Virus record (IMG/VR): IMGVR_UViG_3300005253_000144 | Location: 38,175 to 102,174 of that record | DNA: 64,000 nucleotides | Origin: a virus | Strand: one strand, 5' to 3' | In this document: one piece after another, positions 8,230 to 55,562 of the stretch | Numbering within the stretch: the stretch's first letter is position 1 | Layout: each line of letters opens with the position of its first letter | Notes under the pieces: model-generated | What the model saw: the letters and a program-made list of their open reading frames with translations, nothing else | The model's database searches: none | Told to the model about the DNA's origin: nothing | Position numbers and translations under genes: made by a program

Positions 8230-8601
8230 CTAAGAAATAGGCATTTGTGTAGCACCTAAATTATAAGCCAATCCCAATTCTTTTGGTAGTTGAGTATATG
8301 TTTCCGCGGATAGCCAATCTTTGGGATGGGTGTTTCCCTTTGAATTATTGCATTCATGACAAGCGGGGACTAAGTTTTCCAATGCTTCAACTCCGCCCAG
8401 GATTTTCGGGATGAAGTGGTCAACAGTAAAAGCGGTAGGGTTTTTCATTCGCGGTTTTCCAAAATTCAGCTTTCTCCAACAATAGATACAGTTACCCTGT
8501 GTTTTTCCTAATATGCAAGCGCGCAAATTTATATCGATTGTTATCCAATAACCTTGTACTTTAACCCTAGGATTTTTGAAGCCGCCTAAAATACGTTTCA
8601 T
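8230..8601 (-). CDS. HNH endonuclease
   Basis: CIYC...TVDHFIPK..GG...NLVPACHECNNSKG. Confidence 0.9.
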   Translation of the reverse strand: MKRILGGFKNPRVKVQGYWITIDINLRACILGKTQGNCIYCWRKLNFGKPRMKNPTAFTVDHFIPKILGGVEALENLVPACHECNNSKGNTHPKDWLSAETYTQLPKELGLAYNLGATQMPIS

Positions 8602-9356
8602 TTGCGGTTCACTAATTTTATTAATTCATATAGACAGCCGCTTGAGGGAATTTCAGGGTCAGGCGGCGGGTCTACCGGAGGCACATCTTGAACTTTTAGA
8701 TAGCTATCCCAATCCCATAGGAAGTCGTTCCTATCCAATGTATGACCTGCTGTTTTATCCCAAGGGCTGAATTGATGGGCAACAACATCTTCCAGAACAT
8801 AGCCTCTAGGGATACCAAAGCGTGCAAAGTTTATGCCATAATACGCCGCCCATAAAGGATGCCGGAGGATTGAGATGGGGATATTTCTTGGCAATTCATA
8901 ATCCCACCACCATTTCCCGGTATAGTTCCAGATAAATTCTTCGTCCCACCACTTTCTTGCCTCTGCGAAAGCATCCACCAGCATATGCAGGCGCGCTAAT
9001 TTACTAATATGTGCTATCTGCCGGGGATGCTGTTCCACGTCTATCGCATAAATATCCTCGTCTTTGTGGTCTCCAATATGGTCGATACCAAGTTTTACTT
9101 GCTGCGCAGGACTGAGACCGCCTGAAAGATTAGCGTCAAATGTAATAAATGTTGTTGCACCGCGTAGCTCAAACATGTTTGCGGCAGTCCAATTATTTTC
9201 AAATTGTGAATCAATATGCCCCCTATAGTCAGGCGCCATAAAATAGCCGTCTGATACTTTACACATCGCCCCCTTGACCCCGGCATCTCTAAGCCTATTC
9301 CAGGGAAGAACTCCATTATGATGCGAAACATCGATGAAATCCATTACTGGAGCCAT
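8598..9356 (-). CDS. GH25 muramidase endolysin
   Basis: FIDVSHHNG, KVSDG, AIDVE, LWAAYY, HQFS, LDRN motifs. Confidence 0.85.
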   Translation of the reverse strand: MAPVMDFIDVSHHNGVLPWNRLRDAGVKGAMCKVSDGYFMAPDYRGHIDSQFENNWTAANMFELRGATTFITFDANLSGGLSPAQQVKLGIDHIGDHKDEDIYAIDVEQHPRQIAHISKLARLHMLVDAFAEARKWWDEEFIWNYTGKWWWDYELPRNIPISILRHPLWAAYYGINFARFGIPRGYVLEDVVAHQFSPWDKTAGHTLDRNDFLWDWDSYLKVQDVPPVDPPPDPEIPSSGCLYELIKLVNRK

Positions 9357-9478
9357 GTCTTTTCTCCTGTTTGTCTGATGGTCTATGCTTTTCTTCTACT
9401 TTATCACAGATTTATTCCATTAGTCAATAAGCTGAAGCGGTAAATGTTAATGTGCATTTGGATTTTTAATCAAAAAAC

Positions 9479-9763
9479 CCCGCAAATAATTGGGCGGTTA
9501 GCGTCAAGCATTTACGCTATACTCCAGGGCCTACTCCGCTTAAGCATCCGTATATCTGGCGGTCTTCCTTTAGCGTAATCTCTTGATTGGTTGGCTCTGT
9601 TTGCAGAGATTTCTCAACTAGGGTGCAATTATTCACCTAGCCTTCTTCTCACTATACCCCAGAAGCGGTTTTTCTCCTTGGTTTGAGTCTAGCGCGCCTA
9701 GCTCGGTATAGCGGCATCCACATCTCAGCTTGTTTTATAGCCAATCGCCCAATTAGTTACGGG
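9479..9763 (-). ncRNA. Putative 285-nt highly paired ncRNA
   Basis: 24-nt terminal inverted repeat (9479-9502/9740-9763) plus nested helices CAAGC/GCTTG, CGCTATAC/GTATAGCG, CCGCTT/AAGCGG, TCTGG/CCAGA, AATCTCT/AGAGATT; U-run follows on the minus strand; no credible ORF. Confidence 0.65.
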
Positions 9764-9799
9764 ATTTTTCGGTTTTTAAGGTTCACTTCTTTTCTTAGG

Positions 9800-9944
9800 A
9801 TTGAATATTTTCTTAGGCCGACAGGACTTGCACCTGTGACCTCCGTGCTTTTGGCAACGGTGCTCTATCAGCGCTACTTACTTGGCCGGGAGCGACCCAT
9901 TCTTTCGGCACCTATCTGAGCTACAGCCTAAGAAAATATTCAAT
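9800..9944 (-). ncRNA. tRNA-like RNA with 52-nt D-loop and extended acceptor stem
   Basis: TAGGCTG-TA-GCTC...GAGC-A-CCGT...ACGG-AGGTC-ACAGG-TGCAAGT-CCTGT-CGGCCTA cloverleaf (9813-9930) inside a perfect 19-bp inverted repeat (9800-9818/9926-9944). Confidence 0.75.
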
Positions 9945-9968
9945 TATTAATTTTCTGAATTCCATGTA

Positions 9969-9997
9969 ATATTACCATTTGCGCTATAATTTGTCAA
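9969..9997 (-). promoter_or_regulatory. sigma70-type promoter with TATAGC spacer box, upstream of the 9.5-9.9 kb ncRNAs
   Basis: TTGACA-AATTATAGCGCAAATGG (17 nt)-TAATAT. Confidence 0.75.
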
Positions 9998-10018
9998 GTG
10001 TTTTATATCAGATATATA

Positions 10019-11596
10019 TCAGAAAAGATTCTGCTGGATACCTAAACTCAACCAATAATCTAGCCGCGCTTTAGCAATGTCAATGTATGCCCGTAAAAAT
10101 TCTACACCAACTATGCATTCCCAGCCTGCCTGGAACGCGCCTATCATTTCGCTACCAGTTCCCGCAAATGGCACGAAAATACGGCGTGGGGCATATTCAT
10201 CTGGTGGGAGTAGCAGAGTTGCTAAGTGTTTGATTAGGGCAATCGTTTTTATGGTGGGGTGTACATTGCGCTTACAGGGTTCATCCTCTCCCTTGTCATT
10301 TATATGATGGGTGCTGTGTAGGTCCCCGCATTTGGCGCAGGGGATGTGATGGATTAATCCTTTCTCGCGCTCAACATTTCCGGTCTTTGCCATATATTTG
10401 AAGGCCGCTTCCTGTTCTAGCTTTTCGTATACATAATCAGCGTTGAAAAAGAATTGTGACGCGCCGCCAGAGTCGCCATAGGTATCCTGCAAAGTCGGTC
10501 TATCGCGGTCTCCTTTGTGCCAACCCCAGTTTTTAGCATTGTGTTCGGGAGTCATCAGTCCACTTTTCAAATGCCCGCTCTGCCTATCCAGTTCTCTTGC
10601 CGGACATCCTTCAACGCATTCCCAGACCGCACTTTCACCGCCAACTTCCTCGCCTTCGTAATCTTCGCCGACCGCGTCTCCGAACGGTTTTGCGCCGTCT
10701 GTAAATCGGTTGATAATATAGCCGTCCGGGGAAGTGCCAATGCGCTTGCAGTCTGGGGAATGTTGGATTATGAAGTTGGCTGGCCAGCGGCCAGAGGAAC
10801 CACCCCATTCCTTTTCTTTCTCTGTTTCCGCCCACCCATAAATGTGAGACGGCCCGCTCCCGGTCGGTCCTACTGGTTTTCCAATCCTCCCCCCATCAAT
10901 ATTCAACGCCCCCGCCCCCGTGCGCGTGATGTCGTCTACCGGTCTACCTTTCTCTGTGTACGGTTTCTGGAATACGATTATCGGCTCAAGTGCGGGCTTT
11001 TGAGCTTGCAGTCCGTAGCGGTGACCTTCCCAGGTTTTGGCTAGGTCGGTGGTAGCCTGTTCTCTATAATTGGTGTGTCTACCATCAAATATACTATTCT
11101 CTTGAATATCTTGTGTTTGTCTAGTACCACCATCTCTATATCGGTCATACCATTCTGATTCTCTCTCTGCCCCCGCCGCCTTATCAATCTGCGTATCAAT
11201 CCGAGTAGCTTTCGGAAATCCACTCCCATAAACCCAACCCATCATCGGGTGGATAATATAACCACTGTCCTCAATCGCAACCGCCATCCGGTGTGCTGTT
11301 CTACTGCCGCCGAATGTCATACAAAATGCGCCGGGATATAGTAAGTCCCAAAAGGCGCGCCATGTTTCTGGTCGGAATGCCACATCGCCTCCGTCCCATT
11401 CCTGTGACATAAAACCGCGGGATACCCGCTGAAATGCACCATCGCTCCCAAACTGAGCAGGTGCCGCGCCATCTTTTCCAAAACGTTTGGTGATACTGGT
11501 TAGATGATAGGGAGGGTCCGCGAGGAGTGCGTGAAAAGGCGCACCATCATAATGTTTAGCAAAACGTATTACATCACCATTTAATATTCTATTCAC
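10019..11596 (-). CDS. DNA adenine/N4-cytosine methyltransferase (beta-type)
   Basis: LADPPY motif IV; HPTIK; VPFAGTGS motif I. Confidence 0.9.
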   Translation of the reverse strand: MNRILNGDVIRFAKHYDGAPFHALLADPPYHLTSITKRFGKDGAAPAQFGSDGAFQRVSRGFMSQEWDGGDVAFRPETWRAFWDLLYPGAFCMTFGGSRTAHRMAVAIEDSGYIIHPMMGWVYGSGFPKATRIDTQIDKAAGAERESEWYDRYRDGGTRQTQDIQENSIFDGRHTNYREQATTDLAKTWEGHRYGLQAQKPALEPIIVFQKPYTEKGRPVDDITRTGAGALNIDGGRIGKPVGPTGSGPSHIYGWAETEKEKEWGGSSGRWPANFIIQHSPDCKRIGTSPDGYIINRFTDGAKPFGDAVGEDYEGEEVGGESAVWECVEGCPARELDRQSGHLKSGLMTPEHNAKNWGWHKGDRDRPTLQDTYGDSGGASQFFFNADYVYEKLEQEAAFKYMAKTGNVEREKGLIHHIPCAKCGDLHSTHHINDKGEDEPCKRNVHPTIKTIALIKHLATLLLPPDEYAPRRIFVPFAGTGSEMIGAFQAGWECIVGVEFLRAYIDIAKARLDYWLSLGIQQNLF

Positions 11597-12131
11597 GCTC
11601 TGCCCTTTGTAATTTTATTTCTCTGATACGATGACATCTGGGGCATACAGTTATAAGATTTTTAATCTGGTTTGCTTTTGAATAATCATTAAATTTCCTA
11701 GAAGGAACGATATGATGTACATGTAATGAGTGCCCTATATTTTCCAGACACTCACTTTCCGTTATTAAACAATCTTGACATGTATTATTATCTCGGTTTT
11801 TTACGGCTCTACGCTGTGCATACCAGTTTGCTCCGTGATGATTTATACCATTTCCATGAATAAACTGTGGATGATTTTTACCAATTCGGTATTCATCTCT
11901 GCATGGCCTAGAGCAATATTTTCCCGCCCCTTTATGTTGTTCAAGTTTGCTTTTGGCTATTACAAAGTTCTTTCCACAATTTAAACATTGTTTTTTGGCT
12001 AACCTAAGATGTGGTCTTGCTTTAATTGCAGCGTACTGGCAATCTTTTGAACAATGTTTACCGCGGCCATGTTTGATACGTGAAGGATTCCTACTAAATA
12101 TTTTTCCACAACATTCACATATGAAGTCCAT
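11589..12131 (-). CDS. HNH endonuclease with Zn-ribbon repeats
   Basis: Two CxxC...CSxxC repeats; RDNNTCQDC, LHVHHIVP, NLITVCPRCH. Confidence 0.9.
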   Translation of the reverse strand: MDFICECCGKIFSRNPSRIKHGRGKHCSKDCQYAAIKARPHLRLAKKQCLNCGKNFVIAKSKLEQHKGAGKYCSRPCRDEYRIGKNHPQFIHGNGINHHGANWYAQRRAVKNRDNNTCQDCLITESECLENIGHSLHVHHIVPSRKFNDYSKANQIKNLITVCPRCHRIREIKLQRAERE

Positions 12132-12253
12132 TTTATTATTATAAGATAAATCATGGGACGAGGCAATTGAAATACATAGCAAAGGCTATAACATCCCCTG
12201 TAATTATCCTTGCATTTATGCTTTCCATTTCTTAATTATACCAATATTGATAC

Positions 12254-25526: not shown

Positions 25527-27158
25527 TCACTGCTCCCGCTCTTTTGCCGACCAAAGCGGCAATAACGATAAATCTTTTCCCTCCCCATCCTTCCCTTGGC
25601 CAGCTTCCCAGCTTTGCAATGCCTTTAATCCTAGGCGCTTACTTGCTAGTTTTAGATAATCCATAGCTATGTCTAGGCCAATGCCGTGCCTACCTAACTT
25701 GCGAGCCACGATAAGCGTTGTGCCAGAGCCGATAAAGGGGTCTAAAACCAAAGATGGCTCAAGCTCAATTTCCAAAACGCCCGCGCCCAAACAATCTGAA
25801 CAAACAATTTCCAGTTTGTCCTCTGGGTCAATTCCTATGCCAGCACACCTATCACAAGGCGCAAATTCCAATGGCCTTTTTCTGGCTCGCTTAAACCATT
25901 CGTCTTGGGTATCCTGTTGATACTTTTTGCGCGCACTCCTTACTCTTGGGAATGCGCGATAGGCATCATCATAATGTTTACAGACAGGACGCCAACCGAG
26001 GGTTTTACTCATTGCTGGCTTTTCCATTGTTCCGCTAGAGCGAGTTCTGCCCAGCTTATGAGTTCGCTCTGATCGTCTGATTTTCATGGCTATCTTCTCA
26101 ACCGTCCTCTCCCAAGGGTTACCGCATTCAGGACATACACCCTTCTCAGATACACCTGCTTTAATGCAAGTTTCTACAAGTGCAGGAGGATAAGTTGCGA
26201 AATGTGCACCTGAATATGGGGCTGTGGCCATTGTCCATACGGAACGTTTGTTGCGGCCTCGTTCCGAAAAATCATTGTCCCTTAATCCTGCATGTGGCTG
26301 GCCGTTCGGCATCACCCCTTCAGAATAACGTTTTTCGTTGTCTCGGTTTCTTAGACCCCAATCTTTCGATGGCTCACGAATGGCATCCGCATCATAGTAA
26401 TACTTCTTGCTCTTTGTGAGCAGGAACAAATACTCATGCGCCTTTGTTGGCCTGTCCGTGACGCTCTCCGGCATCGGGTTCGGCTTGTGCCAAATAATAT
26501 CCGAGCGCAGATACCAGCCATCGGCTTGCAATGCCAGAGCCACGCGCCAGGGGACTCCCATCAGGTCTTTGGGTTTGAGATCTAATTGTTTGCCAGCTCT
26601 GCGGCTATTCTGTTGACCTGATTTATGTGGGGAATTTTGTTGTGCAAACCCCGTTGATCTATTTGTGCCTGGATACTTTGGCTGTCCTTCTCGCAATCCG
26701 CCTTCGTTGTAATCCCCGCCAGCTCCACCACTTCCCGCGTAAGAATCTCCGAGATTTAACCAGAAGGTCGCGTCGTCTCTCAACACCCGCCAAACTTCCC
26801 GGCACCATTCTACGGTGTGGTCAATGTACATTTGCAGTGTCGGTTCGAGGCCGTATGCGCCGCGCCAGGCGTTGCATTTGGTACAAGAGCCGCCATGTAA
26901 TTGCGCAGTAGTTTCCCATCCATCAGGATTGCTTTTTCGCGTATGCCCATGTTGCCAGCGCTTACGTGATGTATAATTCTCGTCTTTGATTTCAGCGCCA
27001 AACCACTCGTGCACACAATCCTTATCGCCCCCGAATATGAATTCCTGCTCGCCAGAATATTTTCTGAGGGAATAGTAAGGGGGGCTGGTCACGCCCATAT
27101 GAACAGACTTATCCGGGAGTGGTATCTGGAAAGCGTTTGCCTGTGCTAGTAACAACAT
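25527..27158 (-). CDS. DNA methyltransferase (N4C/N6A) with Cys-rich insertions
   Basis: VTSPPYY, AHFATYP, LDPFIGSGTT. Confidence 0.9.
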   Translation of the reverse strand: MLLLAQANAFQIPLPDKSVHMGVTSPPYYSLRKYSGEQEFIFGGDKDCVHEWFGAEIKDENYTSRKRWQHGHTRKSNPDGWETTAQLHGGSCTKCNAWRGAYGLEPTLQMYIDHTVEWCREVWRVLRDDATFWLNLGDSYAGSGGAGGDYNEGGLREGQPKYPGTNRSTGFAQQNSPHKSGQQNSRRAGKQLDLKPKDLMGVPWRVALALQADGWYLRSDIIWHKPNPMPESVTDRPTKAHEYLFLLTKSKKYYYDADAIREPSKDWGLRNRDNEKRYSEGVMPNGQPHAGLRDNDFSERGRNKRSVWTMATAPYSGAHFATYPPALVETCIKAGVSEKGVCPECGNPWERTVEKIAMKIRRSERTHKLGRTRSSGTMEKPAMSKTLGWRPVCKHYDDAYRAFPRVRSARKKYQQDTQDEWFKRARKRPLEFAPCDRCAGIGIDPEDKLEIVCSDCLGAGVLEIELEPSLVLDPFIGSGTTLIVARKLGRHGIGLDIAMDYLKLASKRLGLKALQSWEAGQGKDGEGKDLSLLPLWSAKEREQ

Positions 27159-27163
27159 TGAAT

Positions 27164-28528
27164 CTAATCCCCATCATCAGCGCGGCCGCCCATAATAACA
27201 ACTTGCGGTTCAAGGCGCGCTACCCGATTAATAAGCAGGCCGTCCTGAATCGCCATTACATCTTCAATATCCTTATATGCCTGGATAGTTTCATCTGAGG
27301 CAACGCCATGATAAGAAATATTTTTGTCCTCCATGTGCTTTTTGAATTTTGCCTCGGAGTGCACCCGCTTGGCCTCTGTGCGCGAGTAGGGGCGGCCAGC
27401 ACCATGCGCGGATGAAAATAATGCCTCAGGGTTTCCTAGCCCACTAGTTAAATAACTTGGAGACCCGCTCGTACCGGGGATAAGTCCAATCTCATCCTTA
27501 TGTGCTGGCGTTGCGCCCTTGCGATGGACATAATTGCCCTTTGAGTTCAACCAAGCATAATTATGTCGATTGAAAATCGTCCCGGCTACTTGCAATCCAC
27601 TAGAGCGCGCAAATGTAGAGTGGATAATTTCGTGATTGGCAAGAGCATATTCACCCATAAGCTGCATGACCTCCCAATATTCCTTTCCAGCATCTGTATC
27701 CATACGTAACCAACCATGACCCTTTGGAACATTTCTGGTAGTCGCCTTGGTTTCATTTTCGGCCATCTTTGTATAATGCGTTGCCAATTTATGACCCGTG
27801 CCGCGGCTTCCAGAATGTGTGAGCAGGCCTATCCTTTTTACCCTATGGTCCATAGGCAAAAATTCTGGAGACACATTCGCTCGGATTCGTGAAATAAGAA
27901 CTATATCAGCAAAGTGATTTCCGCCGCCGCTTGTGCCCAACTGCCGATTTGCCAAATATTGCAGGGCTTTAACTTTGGGGGCTATATTCCATTGCTCATT
28001 ATCCATGACAGCATGTTTACGCGGGGAATCAAATTCTAAACCCACACCAAACTTTGTAGATGCTTTTAAATAATCTGCGAACATCTTGCGCCTGCTAATA
28101 AACGCATTTGGTGGGATATCATACACACTTAACATGACCATGCAGGAAATGTCGAAACCGATGTAACCTGGTGAAATCGCGTTTTCCGTTTCGATGACCC
28201 CGCCAATGGGTAGGCCGTAACCTTTGTGGGCGTCCGGCATCAGCGCAGCTCTTATTGCGGGCGGTATCCGCGCGCACACTTCCATTTGGTCATAAGCGTT
28301 TTTAGGAATTAGGGCGCCGACTTTTCCAAATGTTGCGATTGGCACGGGCACATCTCGGTATGCTGGAGAAGTATCCTTTCCGAATTTCTTTTCGACCGCC
28401 TCTAATATCTGTTCCGGGTCATTGCCGAGTTCCCCGGTCAGGCTCGCGGCGTACTTGGCAATTTCAGGATACCCGCGCCGTGAATGATATTCCTTTAGCA
28501 ATTCATGCGTGTTGATTCTTTTTGTCAT
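27164..28528 (-). CDS. rtcB: RtcB RNA 3'-phosphate/5'-OH ligase
   Basis: MPDAHKGYGLPIG, GFDISC, GGGNHF, HSGSRG, HRKGAT, SSAHGAGR. Confidence 0.95.
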   Translation of the reverse strand: MTKRINTHELLKEYHSRRGYPEIAKYAASLTGELGNDPEQILEAVEKKFGKDTSPAYRDVPVPIATFGKVGALIPKNAYDQMEVCARIPPAIRAALMPDAHKGYGLPIGGVIETENAISPGYIGFDISCMVMLSVYDIPPNAFISRRKMFADYLKASTKFGVGLEFDSPRKHAVMDNEQWNIAPKVKALQYLANRQLGTSGGGNHFADIVLISRIRANVSPEFLPMDHRVKRIGLLTHSGSRGTGHKLATHYTKMAENETKATTRNVPKGHGWLRMDTDAGKEYWEVMQLMGEYALANHEIIHSTFARSSGLQVAGTIFNRHNYAWLNSKGNYVHRKGATPAHKDEIGLIPGTSGSPSYLTSGLGNPEALFSSAHGAGRPYSRTEAKRVHSEAKFKKHMEDKNISYHGVASDETIQAYKDIEDVMAIQDGLLINRVARLEPQVVIMGGRADDGD

Positions 28529-33725: not shown

Positions 33726-33872
33726 AGATACTCAGATGGTGGCGGCAGCCAGGCCTCGCACGGTTTCAACCTGGGTCACTTTCAACATTCGTCTGCCGGC
33801 TATCCTCCCGTGCTCTGGGAGTCTTGATTACTCGTAACGCTTTAGTCGCCTTCCGCCACCACTTGAATATCC
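33726..33872 (-). ncRNA. Structured RNA with tRNA-like 3' end (CCGCC-ACCA)
   Basis: Outer stem GGATATTCA/TGAGTATCT (two G-U pairs on minus strand), inner TGGTGGCGG/CCGCCACCA, CCAGG/CCTGG arm before the acceptor-like strand. Confidence 0.6.
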
Positions 33873-33878
33873 TTCTTA

Positions 33879-34105
33879 TTGGATGCTCACTATGGGCGAG
33901 GAAGGGCTGACACCTATCGCCTTCGCCCATCCTCTCATTCTCTCTGGGCGTTATCCCGCTCTAATCAGGAAAACTTACGTATGCTTTACCGATTGCAGTT
34001 CAAACCCCTGCAACTAGGTAAACAGCCTTGATAGGATTTCCGTTACTAAGGGGCCTCTGTCAGACTAGAGCAACACGCCACTATATGCCCATAGTGAGCA
34101 TCCAA
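33879..34105 (-). ncRNA. 227-nt structured RNA closed by a perfect 19-bp stem
   Basis: ttggatgctcactatgggc (33879-33897) / gcccatagtgagcatccaa (34087-34105); inner helices GCTCTAGTC/GATTAGAGC, TTTACC/GGTAAA, TTGCAG/CTGCAA. Confidence 0.7.
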
Positions 34106-44516: not shown

Positions 44517-44546
44517 ATATTATCACGTTCCGCTATAATATGTCAA
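44517..44546 (-). promoter_or_regulatory. Leftward divergent promoter with TATAGC box
   Basis: TTGACA-TATTATAGCGGAACGTGA (18 nt)-TAATAT. Confidence 0.7.
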
Positions 44547-44677
44547 GATTGGTAAATCGTGGACGGACTTTTAAAGGGCGGGGAGGGCTTTATTATAGGG
44601 GTCACAAGTTTGCAAAGGGTTTTGTGTTCTGGCACCATACTTTGGACGTTTAATGCGCAGCCCCAAATTTGCTTGAC

Positions 44678-44706
44678 TTGACGAATTATAGCACCTGTGG
44701 TATAAT
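44678..44706 (+). promoter_or_regulatory. Rightward divergent promoter with TATAGC box
   Basis: TTGACG-AATTATAGCACCTGTGG (17 nt)-TATAAT. Confidence 0.85.
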
Positions 44707-53930: not shown

Positions 53931-55562
53931 ATGACAACTAGAAAGTGGCCATCTGATTTCGTCAATAAAGTAATCTGCGGGGACTGCCTTGAGGTGATGA
54001 AGCAAATACCGGACGAATGCGTTGATATGGTCATGACTTCGCCGCCTTACTGGGGCCTCCGGGATTATGGAATAGAGCAGATATTTGGGGGAAATCCAGA
54101 TTGCGAGCATGAGTGGGGAAATCAATTATCTCATCCGAAACAAGAAAAGAGAACAATTAAACAATTAAGATCGAGTAGTGGTTTATCATGGAATCGTGGA
54201 GAGAATGCGTCTATTTTTAAATGGCAAGAATACAGTCCTAAGAATCAAGGTAATTTTTGCCTCAAATGCCAAGCATGGAAGGGCCAGCTCGGACTCGAGC
54301 CGACTCCTGAAATGTATATCGAGCATTTGACCATAATATTCAATGAAGTCAAGCGGACGCTGAAGAAAGAAGGGACGCTCTGGCTGAATATCGGGGATAC
54401 TTATGGAGGGAGTAATACTGGCCACACAGGTCCGGCTCCTACTAAATGGAAAAAGCTACCAAGGGCGAATGGAAAAAGCCTACAGAGCCAAATTAATTAT
54501 CAGCCTAAATGTCTCTGCATGATTCCCGAGCGGCTGGCTTGGTCGCTGATCCAGAATGGTTGGATCCTTAGAAATAAAATCATCTGGTATAAGCCTAATT
54601 CAATGCCTTCGTCAGTTAAGGATAGATTCAGTAATCGTTGGGAAGGTCTATTTCTTTTCGTTAAAAGTAGCAAGCCTGTTTATTGGACAAATAGAAAGAC
54701 AGGGGAGCTTGTTACTAAAAGTCCTTTTGGGATAAAGGGGCTAGAGGGAATAGATTGGGAATGGAAAAAATTAAATAGCAAATTAAAAAAGGTCTCTCTC
54801 TGGCAATCGCATGATTATTATTTTGATTTAGATGCAGTAAGGGAGCCTCATAAATATGATGGGAGAAAAGATACTTTATACAAAGGTGGACCAAAAGATA
54901 TGCAAATAGGAAAACATGAAAGATGGCCAGACCCCGCAGGAAAAAATCCTGGCGATGTTATTAAAGTAGACAGGAAATGGAATGAAGTCCCGGGCCAAGA
55001 AACCCAATCAATCGCGCAAGATCATGGTGGTTGGTATAGGAAGGATGGCTCTCCTATAGTAGATTTTGAGAAGGGTAAAAACCCTGGCGACTTCTGGGGT
55101 ATAAATACCCAACCATTTCCTGAGGCTCATTTTGCCGTGTTTCCTGAAAAGCTATGTGAGAAGCCGATAAAAGCCGGTTGCCCAAAAAAGGCATGTAAGA
55201 AATGTGGAAAGGCGAGGGAGAGGATAATTGAAAAATATGACACTGGCGGGACTCAGAAAATGCCTGATTATTGGGAAACAGATCCAGGTAGTCACGGAGC
55301 TATTCATAGAAAAGGAAGATCAAAAGGAGTGGCGGGAATTCCTATTATGGCGAATAAAACCATCGGCTGGACATCCTGTAAATGCAATGCTGGCTTCGAG
55401 TCGGGCATAATCCTAGACCCATTTGCAGGAGCTGGGACAGTCGGTGTCGTGACCAAGAAATTTGGCCGGCGATTCATCCTGATAGACATCAAAAAAGAAT
55501 ACTGCGAGATGGCAGAAAAAAGGATAGCTCAAGTCGGCTATCAGATGGAGCTGAGGATTTGA
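53931..55562 (+). CDS. DNA methyltransferase (N4C/N6A) with Cys-rich insertions; paralog of 25527..27158
   Basis: MTSPPYW, AHFAVFP, LDPFAGAGT. Confidence 0.9.
   Translation: MTTRKWPSDFVNKVICGDCLEVMKQIPDECVDMVMTSPPYWGLRDYGIEQIFGGNPDCEHEWGNQLSHPKQEKRTIKQLRSSSGLSWNRGENASIFKWQEYSPKNQGNFCLKCQAWKGQLGLEPTPEMYIEHLTIIFNEVKRTLKKEGTLWLNIGDTYGGSNTGHTGPAPTKWKKLPRANGKSLQSQINYQPKCLCMIPERLAWSLIQNGWILRNKIIWYKPNSMPSSVKDRFSNRWEGLFLFVKSSKPVYWTNRKTGELVTKSPFGIKGLEGIDWEWKKLNSKLKKVSLWQSHDYYFDLDAVREPHKYDGRKDTLYKGGPKDMQIGKHERWPDPAGKNPGDVIKVDRKWNEVPGQETQSIAQDHGGWYRKDGSPIVDFEKGKNPGDFWGINTQPFPEAHFAVFPEKLCEKPIKAGCPKKACKKCGKARERIIEKYDTGGTQKMPDYWETDPGSHGAIHRKGRSKGVAGIPIMANKTIGWTSCKCNAGFESGIILDPFAGAGTVGVVTKKFGRRFILIDIKKEYCEMAEKRIAQVGYQMELRI

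Follow-up and report, generated by a model that had tools for sequence, protein, structure and literature searches.

The tRNA cluster of phage T4 includes two stable small RNAs, species 1 and species 2 (rnaC and rnaD), that are co-transcribed with tRNA-type genes and cut from a common precursor. Long flanking duplexes of more than 20 base pairs are classical substrates of RNase III. GOLLD RNAs often occur near tRNAs and in prophages, and ROOL RNAs have the same properties (PMC5737381). The element described here occupies positions 9479-9763 of a 64,000-nucleotide stretch of DNA (the window) that corresponds to bases 38175-102174 of an IMG/VR phage record, which is 102 kb long and has an estimated completeness of 91%. 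The record encodes TerL, a head protease and an endolysin, in agreement with the assignment of the element to a phage in the initial annotation. No GenBank phage has a large terminase more than 36% identical to the one encoded here, and thus the phage is uncultured and far from known ones.

The element sits in a 660-nucleotide gap without convincing ORFs, with a DNA methyltransferase gene that carries a large insert (10019-11596, minus strand) upstream and a GH25 endolysin gene (8598-9356, minus strand) downstream. The endolysin gene is followed on the same strand by an HNH endonuclease gene and then by an SLT transglycosylase gene. The interval had been described as free of ORFs, and this is borne out: the longest ORFs encode 30-44 amino acids and lack credible ribosome-binding sites, and the single ORF reported by the gene caller (44 amino acids, plus strand) has no homologue among 5.8 billion proteins. 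A hidden small protein or holin was rejected on these grounds and because the minus-strand ORFs are not hydrophobic. When antisense targets were sought in the phage genome, the longest complement was 14 nucleotides, which is at chance level. The upstream methyltransferase gene is one of three (the others at 25527-27158 on the minus strand and 53931-55562 on the plus strand) that match the same PHROG profile, with ∼220 profile positions spread across more than 500 residues. This spacing implies an insertion of ∼300 amino acids in each of the three proteins, perhaps an intein or an inserted domain. The G+C content is higher, at 54-56%, in the 10.45-11.05 kb part of the window.

The element is closed by a 24-nucleotide inverted repeat (9479-9502 and 9740-9763), in which, as originally reported, 22 of the 24 positions are paired on the minus strand when G-U is counted. 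The pairing is longer still, and extends to a 30-base-pair helix between 9471-9502 and 9740-9771. This closing helix, termed P1, was delineated both by the repeat scan and by the predicted fold. Its 5′ strand (9740..9771, minus) includes an A5 run and its 3′ strand (9471..9502, minus) includes a U6 run, which corresponds to A6 at 9472-9477 on the plus strand. The helix consists of 26 Watson-Crick pairs and four G-U pairs, with two 1×1 mismatches. In a scan of the entire 102-kb genome for inverted repeats 30-450 nucleotides apart, the closing repeat ranks first with a score of 25.5 (arms of 35 nucleotides, 80% complementary, spanning 307 bp). For comparison, the best repeat in each of eight composition-preserving shuffles of the genome scored 15-19.5, so that the element outscores all eight. 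Of the six positions in the helix that are not Watson-Crick pairs, four are G-U on the minus strand but only one on the plus strand, a distribution that leans toward the minus strand. If transitions gave rise to the mismatches, this strand bias falls short of significance (4/5, one-sided p ∼0.19).

The minus strand of the 285-nucleotide element is predicted to fold with a free energy of −94 kcal/mol (z −4.27), and none of the shuffled sequences folds as well. The plus-strand fold is weaker, at −86 kcal/mol (z −2.6). When the full closing helix and the flanking A/U runs are included (311 nucleotides, 9466..9776, minus), the minimum free energy is −104.7 kcal/mol and the z score is −5.11. The rod-like shape proposed at the outset is not what emerges, however, since P1 closes a five-way junction from which four sub-domains, D1 to D4, project. 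D1 (9650..9713, minus) is a three-way junction with pair probabilities of 0.97-0.99 and a z score of −3.33, and is composed of a nine-base-pair stem (CGCUAUACC/GGUAUAGUG), a CUAG-GCGCG-CUAG hairpin and a GGAG/CUUC hairpin. D2 (9616..9642, minus) is a hairpin formed by GGCUAGGUG and CACCCUAGUU (P ∼0.85, z −1.7), and D3 (9595..9608, minus) is a small hairpin, CUCUG-CAAA-CAGAG, with P 0.56. D4 (9504..9586, minus) is an irregular 83-nucleotide hairpin closed by UCAAG/CUUGA and UUACGCUA/UAGCGUAA (P 0.5-0.7, z −1.6). The CUAG/CUAG and CUAGG/CCUAG side hairpins noted previously are both present in the predicted fold. D1 and D4 have a CUGGRGUAUAGYG motif in common; an overall similarity between the two sub-domains, as an internal duplication would produce, is not significant (z 0.86).

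Removal of the closing helix leaves a 237-nucleotide interior whose z score is −1.97 on the minus strand (6 of 200 shuffles fold as well) and −0.84 on the plus strand. A z score of −1.97 or lower is reached by 10% of 41 windows of the same size sampled across the genome. Because the interior is thus near the genomic background, it is the closing helix that accounts for the bulk of the folding signal (z −4.3 to −5.1). Among the sub-domains only D1 is clearly non-random (z −3.3), with the proviso that it was chosen post hoc. In thermodynamic terms, therefore, a large structured RNA is supported mainly by one very long inverted repeat together with one good small domain. The comparison with shuffled sequences that had been suggested as a check supports the element as a whole and D1, but the interior only marginally.

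A sigma-70-type promoter-like site, TTGACA-17-(TG)TAATAT, with 10 of 12 matches and an extended −10 element, is located upstream on the minus strand (9969..9997), and the start predicted for it lies near 9962. This site would drive the element and a tRNA mimic that lies between the two as one transcript. No further promoter-like site occurs on the minus strand from 9969 down to 9427, the interior of the element included, which accords with the earlier view that the element and the tRNA-like RNA share a promoter. An invertible promoter segment was rejected for the same lack of an internal promoter-like site. A second promoter-like site, TTGACT-18-(TG)TAAAGT (9398..9427, minus), is present just past the element and ahead of the endolysin gene. 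The U6 run that was said to follow the element does so on the minus strand, but it is itself paired with the A5 run in the predicted fold, and a terminator scan of the region found no canonical terminator hairpin. The sole local hairpin ahead of U6 has only four base pairs, so that termination would require the long-range helix. Given the promoter, the orientation of the genes, the adjoining tRNA mimic and the better fold of the minus strand, an RNA transcribed from the minus strand is plausible.

The tRNA mimic (9794..9950, minus) lies upstream of the element in the same putative transcript. It contains a perfect 19-base-pair inverted repeat that prolongs the acceptor stem in register, such that the RNA is closed by an acceptor-stem extension of 21-27 base pairs, and its predicted fold has a z score of −5.23. 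The mimic is called neither by ARAGORN nor by the Rfam tRNA model. The sequence TTTTCTTAGG occurs twice on the 3′ side of its closing stem, at 9790-9799 and 9808-9817 of the window (plus strand), the copies being 18 nucleotides apart; hence the 5′ strand of this stem has two alternative partners. Features of the mimic recur in tRNA-like genes of other IMG/VR phages of up to 177 kb (L118:3121-3208(−), L119:259-372(+), L117:3873-3986(−) and L120:11319-11436(+)): a hairpin of 30-60 nucleotides is inserted directly behind the GG of the D-loop, and the T-loop is UGCAAGU. In the L119 copy, the anticodon loop is GAA and CCA is encoded. Together with the mimic, these four genes may represent a phage tRNA family in which the D-loop carries either an additional arm or an intron.

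Long closing stems are found elsewhere in the same genome. The next-best long-range repeats close the tRNA mimic and a 227-nucleotide ORF-free element (33879-34105, minus; z −7.1), and a 147-nucleotide ORF-free element (33726-33872, minus) is closed in the same way. The latter two are located in the tRNA/DUF7873 region and have closing helices of at least 18-20 base pairs. At least three other RNAs with long closing stems are thus present in the phage besides the element, and such stems are a recurrent feature of its RNA genes. The best argument that the repeat of our element would likewise act at the RNA level comes by analogy with the mimic, whose repeat plainly continues an RNA helix.

The proposal that the element is unclassified is upheld by searches with Rfam 15. 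At the gathering threshold, cmscan of the window reported only three tRNAs, at 32.9-33.4 kb, and thus no known RNA family at the element. A search of 9300-10100 with lax filters and E≤10 yielded only a sub-threshold match to fstAT, at 17 bits versus a cut-off of 72 bits and on the other strand. There is no Rfam match to RNase P RNA, SRP, tmRNA, 6S, GOLLD, ROOL, group I or group II introns, T-box, ribozymes or Y RNA, and ARAGORN finds no tmRNA in the window. The sequence features of the element and their statistical excess are established, as is the lack of a known family that matches it.

The gene content of the phage bears on several specific candidates. A retron non-coding RNA was considered on account of the flanking a1/a2-like inverted repeats and was rejected, because the 102-kb genome has no RVT_1 match; the neighbours of the element are the methyltransferase and the endolysin, not a reverse transcriptase. 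A Y RNA or YrlA was ruled out because the genome lacks a Ro60 (TROVE) gene and Rfam reports no Y RNA match. Processing by a phage-encoded RNase III and archaeal-type splicing were also dismissed, since the genome contains neither an RNase III gene nor a splicing endonuclease gene. Rfam likewise gave no match to any of these rejected classes. The phage does encode a full-length RtcB RNA ligase (27164-28528, minus; Pfam E 3.6e-71) and other RNA-linked genes, and genes for a radical SAM enzyme, DUF7873 and DUF5662 are present as well.

Searches for relatives were carried out at the level of both the element and its neighbours. Blastn against GenBank phages and plasmids gave no match to the element, which is also single-copy in its own genome. 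In a large protein collection, six relatives share 52-81% identity with the endolysin, and three further contigs fall into its own 90% cluster. Alignment-based scans with the endolysin led to four loci, L006-L009, at ∼52% identity, none of which has the RNA upstream. In L006, the nearest of these that keeps the endolysin-SLT order downstream, tail genes and a short gap precede the endolysin. Thus, the module occupies a variable region and is no conserved core feature. Two further contigs encode a near-identical TerL. The best TerL relative in IMG/VR is 56% identical, and neither blastn, nhmmer and DNA searches nor an inverted-repeat scan of five whole TerL-relative records found a homologue or a comparable element. 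A covariance model, R1, for which the single sequence and its centroid structure served as input, recovered from 1.5 Mb of loci plus the five whole records only the element itself and short terminator-like hairpins. Pattern scans of IMG/VR matched the helix core by itself at six isolated places, a chance-level result, and the paired cores nowhere.

A single non-coding candidate turned up in the closest IMG/VR relative (56% TerL identity), L104:3625-3810; its repeats lie between mirrored promoter-like boxes, and it is not a homologue. This interval contains four copies of ACTTAAC, is bounded by a 16-bp inverted repeat with TATAAT-like boxes, and may serve in replication as an origin or else in regulation. 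In our window, a 161-bp interval (44532-44692) lies between mirrored GCTATAAT...TTGACA-like boxes, and looks more like a face-to-face or back-to-back promoter pair than like an RNA stem.

We favor the interpretation that the element specifies a non-coding RNA co-transcribed with the tRNA mimic, with the terminal helix serving as a processing or stability stem and as a terminator, and estimate its probability at roughly 45%. In this model, the element would be the 3′ part of a non-coding transcript of ∼490 nucleotides, which the host RNA polymerase would start at the consensus promoter (9997-9969, minus) and which would contain the tRNA mimic first and then the ∼300-nucleotide RNA. The two ends of this RNA would pair into the 30-base-pair helix that closes the five-way junction of four sub-domains. 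The helix could have three roles. Its GC-rich outer part and the U6 run may stop transcription ahead of the endolysin gene, for which a separate promoter-like site is available. Its more than two turns of near-perfect duplex would be a likely substrate for host RNase III, the cleavage of which would free the RNA from the tRNA mimic. The stump that remains after cleavage might then shield the RNA from exonucleases. Once released, the RNA would represent a new family of stable phage RNAs that act in trans, and would join the unusual RNA repertoire of this phage, made up of the tRNA mimic, the 227- and 147-nucleotide stem-closed RNAs, the three tRNAs and the RtcB ligase. The transcription, processing and stability of the RNA, as well as any function in trans, are inferred. 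The ORF-free gap, the consensus promoter, the top-ranked helix, the recurrent closing stems, the minus-strand fold, D1 and the presence of RtcB make this interpretation plausible. Counting against it are the failure to find a homologue, the near-background interior, the non-significant G-U bias, the lack of a canonical terminator and the missing module in L006. A more elaborate version, in which a new RNA family is cut from a precursor shared with the tRNA mimic and works with RtcB and the other stem-closed, tRNA-like RNAs, is speculative and quite improbable as a whole. In that version the RNA could possibly counter RNA-cleaving defences of the host as a decoy or a repair scaffold, or could be a substrate that is ligated into a circle.

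The near-background fold of the interior is also what would be expected if the repeat were a transcription stop or insulator, that is, a long bidirectional terminator-like sequence between the RNA/methylase unit and the lysis genes that encloses some 240 nucleotides of functionless spacer or decayed sequence. On either strand, the GC-rich outer stem lies between the A5 and U6 runs, the R1 matches in other phage contigs are short A/U-flanked hairpins of 34-60 nucleotides, and a promoter-like site directly follows the element. Intrinsic terminators, however, have loops of a few bases, whereas the loop here is ∼240 nucleotides and the scan detected no canonical terminator; 30 base pairs far exceeds the length needed for termination, D1 is clearly structured, and the other RNAs of the phage carry the same long closing stems without U-runs. 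On balance we consider this explanation unlikely. Control of the lysis or late genes by a cis-acting leader, with read-through of U6 governed by an antiterminator or by the RNA fold, would give the same stop signal a regulatory role. The lysis genes of phage lambda are preceded by a short constitutive transcript and a terminator, and the element likewise lies directly upstream of the co-oriented endolysin, HNH and SLT genes; a strong promoter and a stop signal are found in the intervening DNA. Yet the endolysin gene has its own promoter-like site past the element, the gene upstream is a methyltransferase rather than a Q-like gene, no alternative pairing with the ribosome-binding site of the endolysin gene was seen, and no Rfam antitermination family matches, all of which make a leader very improbable.

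The repeat might instead act at the level of DNA, in a MITE-like mobile or recombining element of ∼303 bp with imperfect terminal inverted repeats of ∼30 bp, placed amid homing-type genes. An ORF-free element with terminal inverted repeats and a size within 100-600 bp fits this description, HNH endonuclease genes are nearby (8230-8601 and 11589-12182), and the absence of the module upstream of the endolysin in L006 would be consistent with mobility. TTTTTAA occurs at both borders (9463-9469 and 9773-9779), but this putative target duplication is of low complexity and overlaps the ends of the repeat. The single copy in the genome, the lack of matches in GenBank phages or plasmids, and the fact that the matches to the repeat core in IMG/VR were isolated, chance-level and never paired speak against a mobile element, as does the neighboring tRNA mimic, which has the same kind of repeat in a position where it clearly extends an RNA helix. 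We regard a mobile element as distinctly doubtful.

The sequence feature is real and statistically unusual, and its interpretation as a co-transcribed non-coding RNA is plausible but unproven, the element being an orphan so far. Because the present evidence does not separate these interpretations and the fold signal of the interior is weak, the element is a lead and not a discovery. Should the RNA prove genuine, the small group of large non-coding RNAs that phages carry beside tRNA genes gains a new family, and the co-occurrence of RtcB, tRNA mimics and several stem-closed RNAs in one phage may indicate an RNA-based toolkit for infection or counter-defence. A long terminator or a MITE would be ordinary.

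Like GOLLD and ROOL, the element is apparently non-coding and multi-branched, and is found in phage DNA by a tRNA-type gene. GOLLD and ROOL, however, average ∼580-800 nucleotides and have pseudoknots and conserved nucleotides, whereas the element is ∼300 nucleotides long and matches neither Rfam model. Species 1 and 2 of phage T4 are smaller (∼120-140 nucleotides) and are also phage non-coding RNAs beside tRNA-type genes. Retron msr-msd RNAs share the terminal inverted repeats (a1/a2) that close a structured RNA of a few hundred nucleotides, but the genome of our element has no reverse transcriptase gene. YrlA of the rsr-rtcB RNA repair operons shares a long terminal stem, nearby tRNA mimicry and an RtcB gene in the genome (PMC4201824). 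The ends of YrlA, however, enter at the position of the anticodon stem, whereas the mimic next to the element is closed through its acceptor stem. The leader-trailer stems of rRNA operons and the RNase III sites of phage T7 likewise place a long-range duplex of more than 20 base pairs around a structured RNA within a longer transcript; the element differs in that its cleavage is putative, the enclosed RNA is not rRNA and the phage itself lacks an RNase III gene. The element is a member of none of the known RNA systems compared here; by context it resembles GOLLD and ROOL, and by architecture it resembles the RNAs that are released from leader-trailer stems.
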